A stretch of DNA of 64,000 nucleotides from Methanomassiliicoccales archaeon (GTDB lineage: Archaea > Thermoplasmatota > Thermoplasmata > Methanomassiliicoccales > UBA472). Positions 11,493 through 23,174 of this stretch are shown in pieces (position 1 is the first letter of the stretch; each line of letters opens with the position of its first letter). Made by a program: the position numbers and the translations under genes. The notes below the pieces were generated by a model. It saw nothing but the letters and a program-made list of their open reading frames with translations, searched no databases and was not told the origin of the DNA. Where the stretch lies: NCBI GenBank assembly GCA_036504055.1, contig DASXVU010000045.1, positions 70,147 to 134,146 of the forward strand. Reading direction: 5' to 3'.

Positions 11493-11795
11493 ATGGAATA
11501 CATATACAGCGCATTGGTGCTTCACGCAGCAGGAAAGCCGATCAACGAGGATGGCGTAATCGCGATCCTCAAGGGAGCTGGAATCGAGGCAGATGCAGCC
11601 AAGGTCAAGGCCTTGACCGCATCCCTCGAGGGCGTCAACATCGACGAGGCAATCGCCTCCGCGATGGTCGCCGCAGCCCCGGCCGCAGCCGCTCCAGCAG
11701 CAGCCGCCCCGGCAGCAAAGAAGGAAGAGAAGCCGGAAGAGCCGGCAGTCACTGAGGAAGAGGCCGCAGCCGGTCTCTCCGCCCTGTTCGGTTAA
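11493..11795 (+). CDS. rpl12: 50S ribosomal protein L12 (P1/P2 stalk)
   Basis: [11 protein letters not shown], Ala-rich hinge, GLSALFG C-terminus. Confidence 0.96.
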
Positions 11796-11828
11796 ACGAA
11801 CTGGTGCCTCAGAGGCGCTTCAAACCCC

Positions 11829-17794: not shown

Positions 17795-18232
17795 ATGCGC
17801 GTAAGAGAGGCCACCCCACAGGACCTGGACGACCTGATGCGCATCGAAGAGGAATCATTTCAGGAAGAAAGGTTCAACAGGGACCTCCTGGAGATGTTCG
17901 TGAACGAGGAGGAGTTCGAGACCCTGGTCTGCGAGATGGATGGAATCGTCGTGGGGTATGCCACCGCCTACACTGAGCCGGGGGTCAAGAGCCGCGTTCT
18001 ATCGCTGGCCGTGGATAAGAGGCATCGAGGAAGGGGGATCGGAGTTGAACTGATGAGGGAGATCGAACACCGCGCAAGGACTTTGAGATCAAACTCTGTT
18101 TCCCTTGAGGTACGCGTCACCAACGAAGTGGCGGTGAACCTCTACCTGAAGGAAGGATACCGTATCAAAGGGACCATTCCTGACTACTATTCCAAGGGAG
18201 AGGACGCATTCTACATGGAGAAGAAGCTATAG
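17795..18232 (+). CDS. rimI: GNAT N-acetyltransferase, RimI/Ard1 family
   Basis: LAVDKRHRGRGIG, LEVRVTN..AVNLY, YYSKGEDAFYM. Confidence 0.88.
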   Translation: MRVREATPQDLDDLMRIEEESFQEERFNRDLLEMFVNEEEFETLVCEMDGIVVGYATAYTEPGVKSRVLSLAVDKRHRGRGIGVELMREIEHRARTLRSNSVSLEVRVTNEVAVNLYLKEGYRIKGTIPDYYSKGEDAFYMEKKL

Positions 18233-18454
18233 ATCGACGGGTTTTCTGAGATTCCGGACAGCGATTTGTCTAGCCGCCTGAAAAATAGAAGATAACCGGC
18301 CGCCCTTTAATGATTGTAACCTTTTATGGGTATTTTGATGGCATATCTGGGTGCGTTTTGTGAAATATCAATAGACCTCGGAAACCATTAAGTAATAGAC
18401 CTATTATTGGTGGTTGTCATCAACACTCGCAGATTGTTGGCTAGGGGTGCGTAA

Positions 18455-18622
18455 ATGGAAGAGTCACTTTGCAACGTCGAGTTCCTTAAGAACAATAACA
18501 CTTACATTGCCCGTGTACAAAGCGACCTTGGTGGCCTCAGGGAGTACCAAAGTTCTAACCTAGAGGAAGTCCTCGAACAGGTCATCATCGACCTTCAAGA
18601 GGAGTTCGAGACCTCCATCTGA
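18455..18622 (+). CDS. Small hypothetical protein (55 aa), below the ORF-track cutoff
   Basis: Hand translation MEESLCNVEFLKNNNTYIARVQSDLGGLREYQSSNLEEVLEQVIIDLQEEFETSI; SD-like AGGGGTG upstream. Confidence 0.7.
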   Translation: MEESLCNVEFLKNNNTYIARVQSDLGGLREYQSSNLEEVLEQVIIDLQEEFETSI

Positions 18623-18745
18623 GCGTGCCAGGCCAAGAAAGCGGGCCACGGTCTTCTGGAGGCAGATGCTTCTGGATAACTTGGGCTCCATCCATTAGGA
18701 GGGGTTCAGGTGCAAGAAAAGGAAGGTAACGAGATTGATACGGTA

Positions 18746-19051
18746 ATGTCCTCTTACTACGGGGAGGAGCAGGTTACTGCGATTATTAACCTCAAGGTCG
18801 ATACCAAGGCCGCAGACACGATCGCGGAAAAGGTGGCCAAGTATGCCCTTGTGGAGGATGTCTTCCTGGTCACTGGTGATACTGATATCGTTGTCAAGAC
18901 CAAGTTCCACAACTATAATCAGCTCAAGAGGTTCCTTGTGGACGAGATCTCGAACATCGATGGAGTGAAGGACACGAAGACTCTGATGGTGGTCACGACC
19001 TTCAAGGAAAGGGGAAAGATCGTAGCTGAATCGCAGGAGCCGAACAAATAG
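18746..19051 (+). CDS. Lrp/AsnC ligand-binding (RAM) domain protein without HTH
   Basis: VEDVFLVTGDTDIVVK, IDGVKDTKTLMV; no N-terminal HTH. Confidence 0.85.
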   Translation: MSSYYGEEQVTAIINLKVDTKAADTIAEKVAKYALVEDVFLVTGDTDIVVKTKFHNYNQLKRFLVDEISNIDGVKDTKTLMVVTTFKERGKIVAESQEPNK

Positions 19052-19087
19052 GCTTCATGGTGCAAATTAGTCTCAAGAGGTGTTAAC

Positions 19088-19363
19088 ATGGTAGTAGTTG
19101 ATGTCAAGCAAAAGATGGGTCAAATTTTGGAAGTATTGGACCAGTTGGCCGAGGATACGTCGGTCCCTCGGAACATCAGGCGCGGAGCCACAGAGGCAAA
19201 GGCAAAGCTGGAGCAGAGCGCAGCCTTGGATGTCCGGGTGGCCGGGGCGATCGGAAAGCTGGACGATCTGGCGAACGACCCGAACATACCGATGCATGGA
19301 AGGACCATCATCTATCGCATCATCACCGAGCTGGAGAACCTGCTCGCGGCAGCTCCGAAGTGA
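19088..19363 (+). CDS. UPF0147 family protein
   Basis: DTSVPRNIRR and DPNIPMHGRT motifs; SD GAGGTG. Confidence 0.9.
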   Translation: MVVVDVKQKMGQILEVLDQLAEDTSVPRNIRRGATEAKAKLEQSAALDVRVAGAIGKLDDLANDPNIPMHGRTIIYRIITELENLLAAAPK

Positions 19364-19478
19364 GGACATATTTCTTCGAACAAACTGATTAGCCTCCAGG
19401 GGCCATCTTCCGGCAAATGCTGGCAGTGTCTTGGGTCAGAAAAGATTAAGATATTGTGCTGGATTTGGTAGCGCACAG

Positions 19479-19550
19479 GCGGCCATAGTCTAGTGGTTAG
19501 GACTGAAGCTTCCCAAGCTTCGAACTCGGGTTCGAATCCCGGTGGCCGCA
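19479..19550 (+). tRNA. tRNA-Gly (CCC), intronless, CCA not encoded
   Basis: Acceptor GCGGCCA/TGGCCGC-A; anticodon arm GAAGC-TT-CCC-AA-GCTTC; T-loop GGTTCGAATCC. Confidence 0.96.
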
Positions 19551-20075
19551 CTTTTTATCTTATCCATTCAGCTGATCTTAGGATCATAGGCCTTTTTGCC
19601 ATTACCGAAAACGGTATACCATGTTTTGAATGTAACATGATAGGAGAAATCTAGGTCAGGCAACGGACCTACTATAATAGTTTGGCGATTTCGTTTTGTA
19701 AAATTTATTATTAATTAATTGCATATTTTAGACAATATGAACTGTTCAGGAACTATATGATAACAAATTTCCATATAATTTTGTTTATAATGTATGATCG
19801 AATCTCCTGAACAGGGGAGAATAATGGAAGAGACCCTTGTCGAGGGTGATGTTCTCTGCCATCAGATCAGTTGCAATCAACATCTCGGGATCCATTTTTG
19901 ATCCAGATGTTCAGGCTGTATGCCTCATTGAGCGATTTCTTCCGATCGCTAGCATACGAGACAGACCCTGCGACGATCATCGAGATCGTTGTGGTGGCAG
20001 TCTCCATCCAGTCTGATCAGTGCAACGTAACGAAAAAGGAGATGAAAATATTAGGATGGGATCAACATTGAAGAG

Positions 20076-20157
20076 GGACAAGTTCGGGACGGCTGTCACC
20101 AGGACAGCTGTTCCGGTCGCACCGGGACCGGCTACGACGGTGGCCTTGTCCGTTTTT
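20076..20157 (+). ncRNA. Candidate structured RNA (four-way junction followed by a U-tract)
   Basis: Hand-paired stems of 7, 12, 4 and 5 bp with three G-U pairs on the + strand; no known family recognised. Confidence 0.4.
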
Positions 20158-20264
20158 AACAGCATAGCGAACAAAGCAAGGGACAACGCTTGGAAGATCG
20201 GCGATCAGGCGATGAAAAAGGGCGCCTTCGAGATTGCCTCGGGAATAACGAGAGGTTGTTTCGA

Positions 20265-21290
20265 ATGAGATTCTTCAACAAGCACCGATTGAAAAACTAC
20301 GCCCTGATGCTCGGATCCATAGTGATCGTCATTTCATTGCTGTCCGTAAGTTTGCAGGTCACCAGTGCCGTCCCGAGCTATAACTATAAGATCGTCGGCT
20401 CGAAGGTTCTTAGCTCGACCGGGGCGGTTGTCTATACAGGAACCAACTTCGGCAAGGCGCTTACCTGGACCATGGGCCAGGCGAACAAGGTCACATACGT
20501 GCCCGCGGGCAACTACATCGTTAGCACAGCCATCTATACGGCCTCCGGCGCCAAATTATATGGTGATGGTGACGGACCCACCGGTACGGTGCTCAATTTC
20601 AACGATGCGTCCGCCTCTGCCGAGCAATTCGTTGTGTATAATAAGAATGGCGTAACGTTCAGCAACTTCAGAATGACAGGATATGGCAGCATAGAGGTCC
20701 TGGCCTCGCGTTCATCTGTTACAGCAATAACGATCGACCACGTGACGGCCTACCGTTGTCACGGTAACGACTACGCCTTTGGCTTGATCGCGGTAAGCCC
20801 CTACAAAATTTCTGGAGTGACATTCACAGATTGTCATGCGGAGGGAGTGGATGGATTTGGATACTTGCTGACCGGCACTGGTCAGAAGGCCAATATCAAA
20901 TTCACTGATTGCTCCGCCAATTATTGTGGATATTATTCCACCCGTTTCAATAAATGGGCAACGGGATTCGATGTGTGTGAACTTGGTAGCGTCTCGAACG
21001 TATTACTCACCAGATGCACTGCCAAATACAACTTGGAATCCGGTTTCCACATGGAGTATGCCGCCTCGGTCACTGGAGTGCTGTTCACAGATTGTGTCGC
21101 ATCCTATAATGGACAAAAGCCAGCGGGTTTTGTTAACGGCGACGGAACGGTAGGTCCACAGTATGCAGTAGGTTTCTTGTTCAATGCCAAGAAAATACCG
21201 AGCATCTCATTCGATGGATGCTCGGGTGTGGGGAACATCAAAGGATTGAGCAGGATGGCACCAAGAGCTACGACCCTGTCTACAGTGTAA
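20265..21290 (+). CDS. Secreted right-handed parallel beta-helix (pectin-lyase-like) protein
   Basis: Signal-peptide-like N-terminus; VTYVPAGNYIV..LYGDG...TVLNF motif; repeated (F/L)TDC.A..N rungs. Confidence 0.75.
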   Translation: MRFFNKHRLKNYALMLGSIVIVISLLSVSLQVTSAVPSYNYKIVGSKVLSSTGAVVYTGTNFGKALTWTMGQANKVTYVPAGNYIVSTAIYTASGAKLYGDGDGPTGTVLNFNDASASAEQFVVYNKNGVTFSNFRMTGYGSIEVLASRSSVTAITIDHVTAYRCHGNDYAFGLIAVSPYKISGVTFTDCHAEGVDGFGYLLTGTGQKANIKFTDCSANYCGYYSTRFNKWATGFDVCELGSVSNVLLTRCTAKYNLESGFHMEYAASVTGVLFTDCVASYNGQKPAGFVNGDGTVGPQYAVGFLFNAKKIPSISFDGCSGVGNIKGLSRMAPRATTLSTV

Positions 21291-21318
21291 GTGGAACTGC
21301 GCAGCTCGAAACCACAAA

Positions 21319-21345
21319 TGGGGCGAAATGCCCCACCTTTCTTTT
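21319..21345 (+). terminator. Hairpin plus T-rich tract after the beta-helix gene
   Basis: TGGGGC-GAAAT-GCCCCA followed by CTTTCTTTT. Confidence 0.5.
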
Positions 21346-21353
21346 ACTTCACG

Positions 21354-21526
21354 ATTACGAGCGAAGCCCGACCAAATACCTACCAAACCTGGAGGAAGGA
21401 GGATTGCTGAAAAGGTCTGAGGAGAAGGACAGGATGATCAACGAGATAACCGATAAGGGTAGGCACTTCCTTACCGAGTTCCAGCGCATGGAAGCGTTCG
21501 TCAACGGTTTCGGCCTGGATATTTAG
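21354..21526 (+). pseudogene. C-terminal remnant of a small winged-helix regulator
   Basis: TKYLPNLEEGGLL...EITDKGRHFLTEFQRMEAFVNGFGLDI is typical of the C-terminal half of archaeal small wHTH proteins; no plausible start codon and no N-terminal helices. Confidence 0.55.
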
Positions 21527-21704
21527 GTACCTTGGCTCCGATATGTCTTGATGGTCAAAAACTCGGTTATCCTTGGTCGAATTTTGACCTGGGTTATGCG
21601 GCCGACAATATCTTTTTCGGTCGAATTATATAGATGGTCATGTCTTGTGAGTTGAAACCAGCAATTGGTCTGCATTGCCTTTCTCAACATTAACAGGTGG
21701 ATTG

Positions 21705-23174
21705 ATGAGCCCTCGAGAACAAGAGAAATCTAACGGTAATTGGAGGATACTTGCGATTTTGGCATCGGTCGCGATGATGGTCATGTTCATCGAGATCATG
21801 CTTGTTCCGGCCCTGCCATACGTAGGAGTGGACTTCAACAACTTTCAGTGGATCTCTTGGGTGCTATCGATCTATTTGCTGGTAGGCGCCGTGGCCACCC
21901 CTCTGGCCGGACGTCTGGGCGATATGTACGGCAAGAAGAGGATCATGCTGTACGTCATGTGCATCTACATCATAGGACTGCTCGGCAGCGGGTTCTCGCT
22001 GGACATATCCCGCGCACTGCTCGGCGAGCCTTCGATCTTCGTTCTGATCTTCTTCAGGGGAGTTCAGGGCATAGGAATGGGCATGTTCCCGTTGGCCTTC
22101 GGAATCATACGCGACACTTTCCCCAAGGACAAGATACCCACCGCCATCGGCACCGTCAGTGCGATGTTCTCGGTCGGTGTTTCCCTCGGCCTGCTGGGCG
22201 GGGGCTATATCACCTCCGTCGGCCATTGGTATGATGCGTTCCACGTCGTCGTCCCGTTCTTCGCGGCACTGACCATCCTTACAATGTTCCTCATCAAGGA
22301 CCCTATCATAGTGAAGAGGGGGTCCTTGGACATGGCAGGAGCCGCAACTCTGGGGATCGGCGTGTTCTCGTTGCTGCTGGGCCTGACCCAAGGACAAGAA
22401 TGGGGATGGGCGAGCCCGCTGGTCCTGGCCCTGTTTGTGCTTGCCTTGTCGATGTTCCTGTTGTTCACCAAGCTGGAGCTGAGGACAAAGGACCCGATAG
22501 TCCGCCTGTCTATGTTCAGAAACCGCGGTGTGTTGGATGCCAGCGTAACGGCCATCTTCATCGGCTTCTGCATGTTCCTGATGTTCCAGACGCTACCGTT
22601 CTTCCTTGAGACCCCTAAGGCGGCGGGGGGCTTCTTCGGAATATCCGATACCTTCGTGATCGGGCTCTACATGTTCCCATCAGCGATCGCCCAGCTCATC
22701 TTCGGCCCGATGGGCGGCATTCTTTCGAAGAAGTTCGGGGCCGACAAGGTACTGATGTCCGGCCTTGCCATAATGGCCCTCGGATTCGCCACACTGGTAT
22801 TCATGCATACGGATTGGGTGGGGATCGTGATCTCGATATTCATCACGGGAGCGGGAATGGCCCTGTGCATGGTGTCTATGATCAACCTCGTCGTGGTCAC
22901 CTGCAAACAGAGCGAGTTCGGTGTGGCGTCGGGGATGAACACCTTGTTTAGAGTGGTGGGCGGGGCGATCGGGCCAGTCCTGGCCGTCGTGATCTTGTCG
23001 AACTACACCCAAATCATCCTGGGTCGCCCGGTCTATACCGAGAACGGATATGTGACCACATGGATCATTGGAGCCGCGTTCTCGCTCATCGGACTTGCAT
23101 GCGCCGTCCTCCTTCGCCCGAAGAAAGGGGAAATGGAGTGCGATATCGCGCCCGAGGACCTTCCAGCGAAGTAG
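21705..23174 (+). CDS. MFS transporter, DHA2-like (14 TM)
   Basis: GRLGDMYGKKR motif A, FRGVQGIG, many TM helices. Confidence 0.9.
   Translation: MSPREQEKSNGNWRILAILASVAMMVMFIEIMLVPALPYVGVDFNNFQWISWVLSIYLLVGAVATPLAGRLGDMYGKKRIMLYVMCIYIIGLLGSGFSLDISRALLGEPSIFVLIFFRGVQGIGMGMFPLAFGIIRDTFPKDKIPTAIGTVSAMFSVGVSLGLLGGGYITSVGHWYDAFHVVVPFFAALTILTMFLIKDPIIVKRGSLDMAGAATLGIGVFSLLLGLTQGQEWGWASPLVLALFVLALSMFLLFTKLELRTKDPIVRLSMFRNRGVLDASVTAIFIGFCMFLMFQTLPFFLETPKAAGGFFGISDTFVIGLYMFPSAIAQLIFGPMGGILSKKFGADKVLMSGLAIMALGFATLVFMHTDWVGIVISIFITGAGMALCMVSMINLVVVTCKQSEFGVASGMNTLFRVVGGAIGPVLAVVILSNYTQIILGRPVYTENGYVTTWIIGAAFSLIGLACAVLLRPKKGEMECDIAPEDLPAK

Follow-up and report, generated by a model that had tools for sequence, protein, structure and literature searches.

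A folded RNA junction within a small coding sequence upstream of a secreted beta-helix gene in a Methanomassiliicoccales archaeon

What kind of element is a stable RNA fold that lies directly in front of a gene for a secreted protein? The question is raised by a 64,000-nt stretch of DNA from a Methanomassiliicoccales archaeon (contig DASXVU010000045.1, positions 70,147 to 134,146; the whole stretch is called the window below, and coordinates are counted from its first letter), in which a first-pass annotation, made by eye, had paired a 76-nt four-way junction upstream of a gene for a right-handed beta-helix protein and had interpreted it as a small RNA (sRNA) of its own or as a switching leader of the beta-helix gene. 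The analysis described here makes it moderately likely that the fold is instead a cis-acting structure of the operon mRNA, which lies among the codons of a small gene preceding the beta-helix gene and tunes the translation or the stability of that mRNA.

The fold and the small open reading frame

All four of the hand-paired stems were recovered by RNAfold on positions 20071-20160 of the plus strand, and an outer AAGA/UUUU stem was found to lengthen P1 by using part of the T5 run, which had correctly been placed immediately 3' of the fold (20153-57). The minimum free energy (MFE) of this segment is -47.1 kcal/mol, compared with -30.1 ± 2.8 kcal/mol for dinucleotide shuffles (z = -6.0), and none of 200 shuffles was as stable; the fold of this single sequence is thus far beyond chance. 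It ranks third by MFE among the 8,522 segments of 90 nt on both strands, while 260 random 90-nt segments gave z = -0.2 ± 1.08, with 5% of them reaching -2.2 and none reaching -4. Since the reverse complement of the segment folds more weakly (-35.7 kcal/mol, z = -3.4), an RNA read from the plus strand is favoured, as had been supposed. No further copy of the junction was found with the covariance model R1 in the window or in the homologous loci. The element had matched no riboswitch or sRNA family recognised by eye, and a search of Rfam 15 agrees with this, as neither the junction nor the leader upstream of it gave a match (19552-20700 at E ≤ 10; 13 homologous loci at E ≤ 1); at the gathering threshold, the whole window matched tRNA only.

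The junction spans codons 6-32 of a small open reading frame (ORF) and starts 16-21 nt past its AUG. The overlapping ORF of 82 aa (20020-20268) already noticed in the annotation does exist; its start is, however, most likely ATG 20056, which yields a product of 70 aa, rather than 20020. The position of the first start codon of the family, ATG in the relatives, is occupied in the window by ATT (20050-52), so that the distance from the Shine-Dalgarno-like (SD-like) sequence to ATG 20056 is 14 nt, compared with 8-10 nt between SD and ATG in the homologues. The SD of the small ORF reads AGGAG in 15 of 18 homologues and retains GGAG in all but one of them (L011; homologous loci carry L numbers throughout), a GGAG-type signal being scored in 17/17 intact loci. 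An out-of-frame mini-ORF of nine codons (ATG 20042, encoding MKILGWDQH) begins at the SD and is not conserved among the relatives.

When 1.84 billion representative proteins were searched with a profile, 27 cluster representatives were recovered at E < 1e-3, of which 13 remained at E < 1e-10; the proteins of this family mostly have 64-75 aa. Their consensus is MRMGSSWKKDKRGMGV..TA.PVA.EP....LSVLN.IANKARD.AWKIGDQAMKK....TRGCF, with the core motif RDxAWxIGDQAMKK...RGCF. Homologous DNA was available for 17 intact loci and one frameshifted copy; metagenomes were scanned twice with small-ORF sequences, the first scan (three sequences) giving no match and the second three loci. The reading frame is open in all 17 intact loci, frame 0 having no stop codon and the two remaining frames 82 and 25. 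In each of these loci the stop codon overlaps or abuts the next start (ATGA, GTGA, TAATG or TGATG), the arrangement in the window being ATGA, formed by the small-ORF TGA (20266-68) and the beta-helix ATG (20265). Furthermore, the downstream gene opens in 17/17 loci with the same signal-peptide-like sequence and is of the Beta_helix/NosD type wherever Pfam data exist. Insertions and deletions in the homolog alignments are multiples of three within the small ORF and not so within the leader. Synonymous variation occurs within the peptide core A-W-x-I-G-D-Q-A, and the combination of GCC with CAA in L002 and L005 would break a possible RNA hairpin, which points to constraint at the protein level there.

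With its preserved frame, start signal, frame-preserving indels and conserved protein sequence, the small ORF has the properties of a protein-coding gene; judged from these sequence comparisons, it is a real gene that represents a new small-protein family always coupled to secreted beta-helix proteins. No match for the small protein was found in Pfam, NCBIfam or PDB, and no description of the protein or of the RNA was found in a literature search; together with the Rfam result, this makes both the small-protein family and the leader appear undescribed. An AlphaFold2 model from a 19-sequence alignment, of low confidence (mean pLDDT 65), shows no regular structure for residues 1-24 and a single long helix for residues 25-66.

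As the overlapping ORF is conserved, the flagged element is not an untranslated leader, nor is it an sRNA standing by itself; a conserved, translationally coupled ORF in this region is the very finding that the first-pass annotation had itself set against its proposal. The interpretation of the element as a riboswitch or untranslated leader was rejected because it sits among the codons of a conserved ORF provided with SD and ATG. The suggested role in the beta-helix mRNA survives in part, since the structure lies in the 5' part of that mRNA, but not as an untranslated leader.

An effect of the junction on translation or mRNA stability, which we infer, may arise in several ways. The junction begins immediately outside the stretch that an initiating ribosome covers, and may act as a roadblock, pacing or limiting early elongation as well as initiation on the small ORF; any effect on the small ORF would be passed to the beta-helix gene through the ATGA overlap. 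It may stabilise the 5' region of the mRNA as well. In all this the junction would rank below the upstream leader, the likelier candidate for a sensor.

Conservation of the junction

When the equivalent 66-90 nt of 18 homologues were folded, z was -2.2 or lower in 11/18 (-4.5 in L019, -3.8 in L020), a value reached by 5% of the background. The architecture of the family is a three-way junction, which consists of a closing GGACA/UGUCC stem that AAAA/UUUU often lengthens, a P2 as in the window, and a longer P3 hairpin of the form GUCGCAGCGG-AAC-CCGCUGCGAC. In the window, P3 and P4 stand in place of this single hairpin, as a remodelled form that the relatives do not share. The exact four-way shape is therefore specific to this genome, whereas the element is partly kept, as a three-way junction, in most relatives. 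On alignment A6 (18 sequences), the three-way structure has 70% of its cells paired, compared with 38-51% when the partners are slid by 1-3 columns, and double-sided changes, found in 21 pairs, are in modest excess over shuffles (14.9 ± 2.4; 21 or more in 4 of 500).

The pairing is closely interwoven with the code. In P3, third codon positions pair with each other, and pair 52/62 is either G-C (Ala/Ala, eight sequences) or A-U (Thr/Val, five sequences), so that the base pair is kept by paired codon changes from Ala/Ala to Thr/Val. The native sequences are also more stable than permutations of their own synonymous codons, with p ≤ 0.025 in 9/18 and p ≤ 0.07 in 11/18 copies (mean z -1.5; t-test p = 0.0008). 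The three-way shape of the family may thus be maintained through matched third codon positions and paired codon changes, the four-way form of the window arising when P3 was split in two. The codons occupied by the junction specify the N-terminal half of the protein, a fast-evolving part for which no regular structure is predicted and in which the protein is least constrained. Such a location would account for an influence of RNA-level selection on the choice of codons. The junction may be considered a moderately supported conserved mRNA structure overlapping a coding sequence, to which the amino-acid sequence seems to have given way in part.

Alternatively, the fold could be a by-product without function. 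The N-terminal half of the small protein abounds in Ala, Val, Thr, Gly and Pro, whose codons (GCN, GUN, ACN, GGN, CCN) tend to pair with one another, hairpins would drift, and the window would hold an extreme case. This explanation draws on several of the results that weigh against a function of the junction. Seven of the 18 copies fold no better than shuffles, including the nearest ortholog L001 (z ~ -0.3), and in L008 an in-frame deletion of 21 nt has removed P2 together with part of P3. RNAalifold found no consensus structure in the 18-sequence alignment of the flagged region and, with four sequences, found P1, P2 and a short stem only; P3 and P4 of the window, as stated, are not shared. 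The inner extension of P1, one of five helices tested, is unsupported (39% paired). Moreover, the two 90-nt segments with a lower MFE than the junction (-48.5 and -51.6 kcal/mol) both belong to the Ala/Pro-rich hinge of a ribosomal stalk-protein gene (11494-11796, P1/aL12-like by its translation), where z goes down to -5.1 on the antisense strand; Ala-rich coding sequence alone can reach z ~ -5. The shuffle statistics, in addition, overstate significance because the homologues are phylogenetically related.

Two further results belong on the same side. The dN/dS ratio is 0.66 overall in frame 0 and 0.40 for pairs that include the window, mildly below 1, and the other frames give close values; a ratio barely below 1 means that the small protein evolves fast, and since it is indecisive, the coding call rests on the preservation of the frame, the geometry of starts and stops and the pattern of the peptide core. 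A search of sequencing runs with the sequence of the window itself gave one DNA run and no RNA run.

Against the by-product explanation stand the greater stability of the native sequence than of its synonymous recodings in most copies, the 11/18 copies below the threshold reached by 5% of the background, and the excess of double-sided changes over shuffles, among them the Ala/Ala to Thr/Val replacements by which pairs are kept. We consider a mere by-product fairly unlikely. In our reading of the alignments, the junction would be under selection that is real, yet weak and dispensable.

Transcripts and the upstream leader

A homologous locus, L013, was found in more than 20 metatranscriptomes from peat, wetland and bioreactor samples. 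In three runs its RNA contigs have 412/413 as their first position, in one case directly next to adapter sequence; this position corresponds to about 19823 in the window. One contig (413-906, depth 11.6) crosses the leader, the junction (676-762) and the stop codon of the small ORF (870) and enters the beta-helix gene; the next contig has a depth of 10.8, and the site is crossed without interruption in two of three informative runs. These contigs and those of a further locus, L014, are assembled and unstranded; they show co-transcription and are compatible with minor processed species. The 5' end of L013 lies about 35 nt past the TATA-like box, far for an archaeal transcription start site, and may therefore be a processed end.

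The contigs bear directly on the possibility that a separate small RNA, or an attenuator with conditional read-through, ends at the U5 tract. Oligo-T can terminate archaeal RNA polymerase, the T5 run follows the fold directly, and in one L013 run a contig (X4) stops 12 nt past the U-run, an ambiguous case; the contigs of the two other runs, in contrast, cross the site without interruption, and in the run with the best coverage the depths on either side, given above, are similar. The U-tract that had been read as a terminator has five or more U in only 3/18 copies and provides Val-Phe/Leu codons of an ORF that needs to be read through. A transcription terminator or attenuator was rejected because the U-tract is not conserved, the contigs cross it and a consensus terminator scan does not flag it. 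The discrete transcript of about 80 nt expected by the annotation is not borne out by the L013 contigs, which run through the junction into the downstream gene. An independent sRNA was likewise rejected, since the sole conserved promoter (19773-90) lies about 280 nt away, none being found just upstream, and the L013 contigs span from the leader to the next gene. A transcript ending at the U5 tract is consequently very unlikely.

The earlier suggestion that P1 and P4 mimic the acceptor/T stack of a tRNA leads to a different proposal, namely a tRNA-like structure cut by RNase P or tRNase Z in such a way that the leader is freed. Its attractions are the length of 76 nt, the four-way junction and the 7-bp closing stem adjacent to a stem of 5-6 bp, and L014 leader contigs end about 10 nt 5' of the junction (L014:191-192) in two runs of low depth. 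ARAGORN, on the other hand, reports only the tRNA-Gly at 19479-19551, the tRNA-clan models of Rfam have no match in 20071-20160 even at E ≤ 10, and neither a T-loop nor an anticodon arm is present. P4 is not conserved, the shape of the family is three-way, and a cleavage would destroy the conserved ORF; the mimicry did not hold up, and processing of this kind is extremely doubtful.

Of the non-coding parts of the locus, the one from promoter to small ORF is the best conserved in the alignments. It holds a leader of about 215 nt (19823-20035), for which nine helices and a pseudoknot were modelled in the family and eight plus the pseudoknot in the window, where H2 is deleted. On alignment A8 (18 sequences), 86.4% of the cells are paired, compared with 33-43% when the partners are slid, and double-sided changes occur in 26 pairs against 11.6 ± 2.3 in shuffles, none of 500 shuffles matching the observed value on any of five measures. 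The pseudoknot has 83.5% of its cells paired and four pairs with double-sided change, the compensatory changes including GGAGGA/UCCUCC in L019 and CGAAAGA/UCUUUCG in L010. The window is scored as unpaired at the pseudoknot although the pairing exists, because MAFFT shifts its pseudoknot strand by one column. Being non-coding, covarying and 5' of the SD and start codon, the region has the properties of a structured cis-regulatory 5' leader, and this leader, upstream of the flagged coordinates, is the best candidate for a regulatory RNA at the locus.

The leader raises the further possibility of a riboswitch-like or protein-binding regulator that leader and junction form together, with the junction as expression platform. 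In it, an alternative long-range pairing would open or close the junction and so gate translation, for example if the RNA 5' end AAAACGGA competed with P1 for its 3' strand, UCCGUUUU, and also with the leader pseudoknot. The leader is strongly covarying, multi-helical and pseudoknotted, the junction lies directly past the start codon, and in 7/16 copies the motif at the RNA 5' end can pair with the P1 3' strand (duplex z < -1.5). This complementarity is strongest in L001 and L011, both of which have no P1, and on comparison of the two segments by hand no covariation was found; the pairing is kept as a lead only. The switch originally proposed involved another partner, AGGGACAA, whose recurrence at 20179-86 was confirmed. 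Its duplex with the P1 3' strand (CUUGUCC) reaches z < -1.5 in just 2/18 homologues, which is the chance level, and the motif itself is simply where the conserved peptide core has its Arg-Asp codons; the switch is therefore not supported. Moreover, paralogous surface proteins in at least five copies in one genome would be unusual targets of a metabolite riboswitch. An expression platform working by long-range pairing is thus quite improbable. A broader proposal, that leader and junction together constitute a new class of archaeal cis-regulatory RNA which gates the translation of secreted beta-helix proteins and has the junction as its translated expression platform, is speculative and rather unlikely; the signal sensed could be a small molecule, but also the small protein or some other factor.

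Layout of the operon and relation to known systems

The features of the locus are compiled in Table 1. As deduced from the sequence and the L013 contigs, the operon would be transcribed from near 19823 into an mRNA of about 1.5 kb that carries the leader, the ORF of 70 codons and the translationally coupled beta-helix gene, and the terminator-like hairpin downstream of the latter is probably the end of the operon. The beta-helix protein matches Pfam Beta_helix (PF13229) at 3e-7 and, weakly, TIGR03805. The promoter block of 18 nt, ATATAATTTTGTTTATAT, is almost invariant among paralogs and species in the homolog alignments.

Table 1. Features of the beta-helix operon and its surroundings in the window.
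Feature	Position	Strand	Remarks
tRNA-Gly(CCC)	19479-19551		about 270 nt 5' of the promoter
Promoter block ATATAATTTTGTTTATAA	19773-19790	+	contains TATA-like TTTATA; single match in the window, one mismatch to the family consensus
Structured 5' leader	19823-20035	+	18-sequence alignment A8; 5' end inferred from L013 RNA contigs
Leader pseudoknot	19825-32 with 19937-44	+	5'-terminal (C/U)GGAAGAG with the H4 loop
Leader H1	19833-47	+	
Leader P0	19870-75/20021-26	+	GUUGCA/UGCAAC
Leader H3	19880-19910	+	
Leader PJ	19912-18/20009-15	+	CAGGCUG/CAGUCUG
Leader H4	19932-49	+	conserved loop UUCUUCCG
Leader H6	19958-64/19998-20004	+	encloses H5 (19972-90)
SD-like AAGGAG of the small ORF	20036-20041	+	homolog alignment
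Small ORF, 70 aa	20056-20268	+	ATG 20056, TGA 20266-68
RNA junction inside the small ORF	20071-20157	+	RNAfold; codons 6-34
Junction P1	20076-81/20146-51	+	RNAfold
Junction P2	20086-97/20103-14	+	RNAfold; 12 bp
Junction P3	20115-18/20126-29	+	RNAfold
Junction P4	20130-35/20140-45	+	RNAfold
Second copy of AGGGACAA	20179-20186	+	codons Arg-Asp-Asn, conserved peptide core
SD-like GAGAGG of the beta-helix gene	20250-20255	+	within the 3' end of the small ORF; homologues keep AGAGG or GGGG there
Secreted right-handed beta-helix protein gene, 341 aa	20265-21290	+	N-terminal signal-peptide-like segment; Pfam match
Terminator-like hairpin with T-rich tail	21319-21345	+	3' of the beta-helix gene; consensus scan only

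The locus of a public genome nearest to that of the window is L001, in the metagenome-assembled genome (MAG) OY968769.1. It is syntenic with the window, having tRNA-Gly(CCC), an AT-rich promoter region and then the locus, and its beta-helix protein is 88% identical. The copies L002 and L005 of other genomes adjoin a gene for a B12-binding radical SAM protein instead of the tRNA-Gly(CCC). Promoter, leader, small ORF and beta-helix gene form a module of which the window has a single copy and OY968769.1 at least five (L001/L006, L008, L010, L011 and L015). In L015 the small ORF is frameshifted after NKTR, for which a pseudogene and an error in the assembly of the MAG are both possible. All identified hosts of the module are Methanomassiliicoccales, from peat, soil and wetland samples. 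The G+C content of positions 18000-22000 of the window is 47-51%, compared with about 56% in the remainder.

Among known systems, the structures in coding sequences that control coupled genes, such as the coat/replicase operator of RNA phages and the cases of translational coupling in bacteria, are the closest in mode. The likeness consists in a stable fold over codons, its upkeep by synonymous or compensatory changes and coupling through ATGA. The junction differs from them in being archaeal, in being located at the 5' end of the upstream ORF and not over the downstream ribosome-binding site, in its absence from a third of the family, and in its role in translation, which is a putative one.

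The leader, with its conserved junction nucleotides, covarying helices, pseudoknot and site before the SD and start codon, resembles orphan riboswitches and the 'Cis-reg' motifs of Rfam, and the flagged junction extends its structured region. Unlike such motifs, it has no Rfam match, the flagged element is translated, and the genes concerned are multi-copy genes for secreted beta-helix proteins and not those of a metabolic pathway. With tRNAs and tRNA-like structures (mascRNA, viral tRNA-like structures) the flagged element has in common the size, the four-way junction and the juxtaposition of closing stem and shorter stem mentioned above; it differs from them in lacking a D-loop as well as the T-loop and anticodon arm, in being missed by tRNA detectors and in a four-way shape that is not conserved.

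The small ORF may also be compared with arrest and leader peptides (TnaC, SecM, MifM, attenuator ORFs). It is, like these, a short conserved ORF overlapping the start of the downstream gene, and it is most conserved in its C-terminal ~35 residues, those that would occupy the exit tunnel when the ribosome is at the stop codon. In contrast to SecM and MifM, it has no signal or transmembrane segment, and a long helix is predicted; it may simply encode a small protein rather than an arrest peptide.

Leaders of archaeal mRNAs are mostly short or absent, and to our knowledge few structured cis-regulatory RNAs are known in archaea. If the junction were without function, the locus would usefully caution against taking an extreme z-score in coding sequence rich in Ala, Val and Thr as evidence of an RNA gene. 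If junction and leader do regulate translation, the operon would be a clear case of combined coding and structural constraint, and would offer a tractable example of RNA-based control of surface proteins in the Methanomassiliicoccales of peat and soil.

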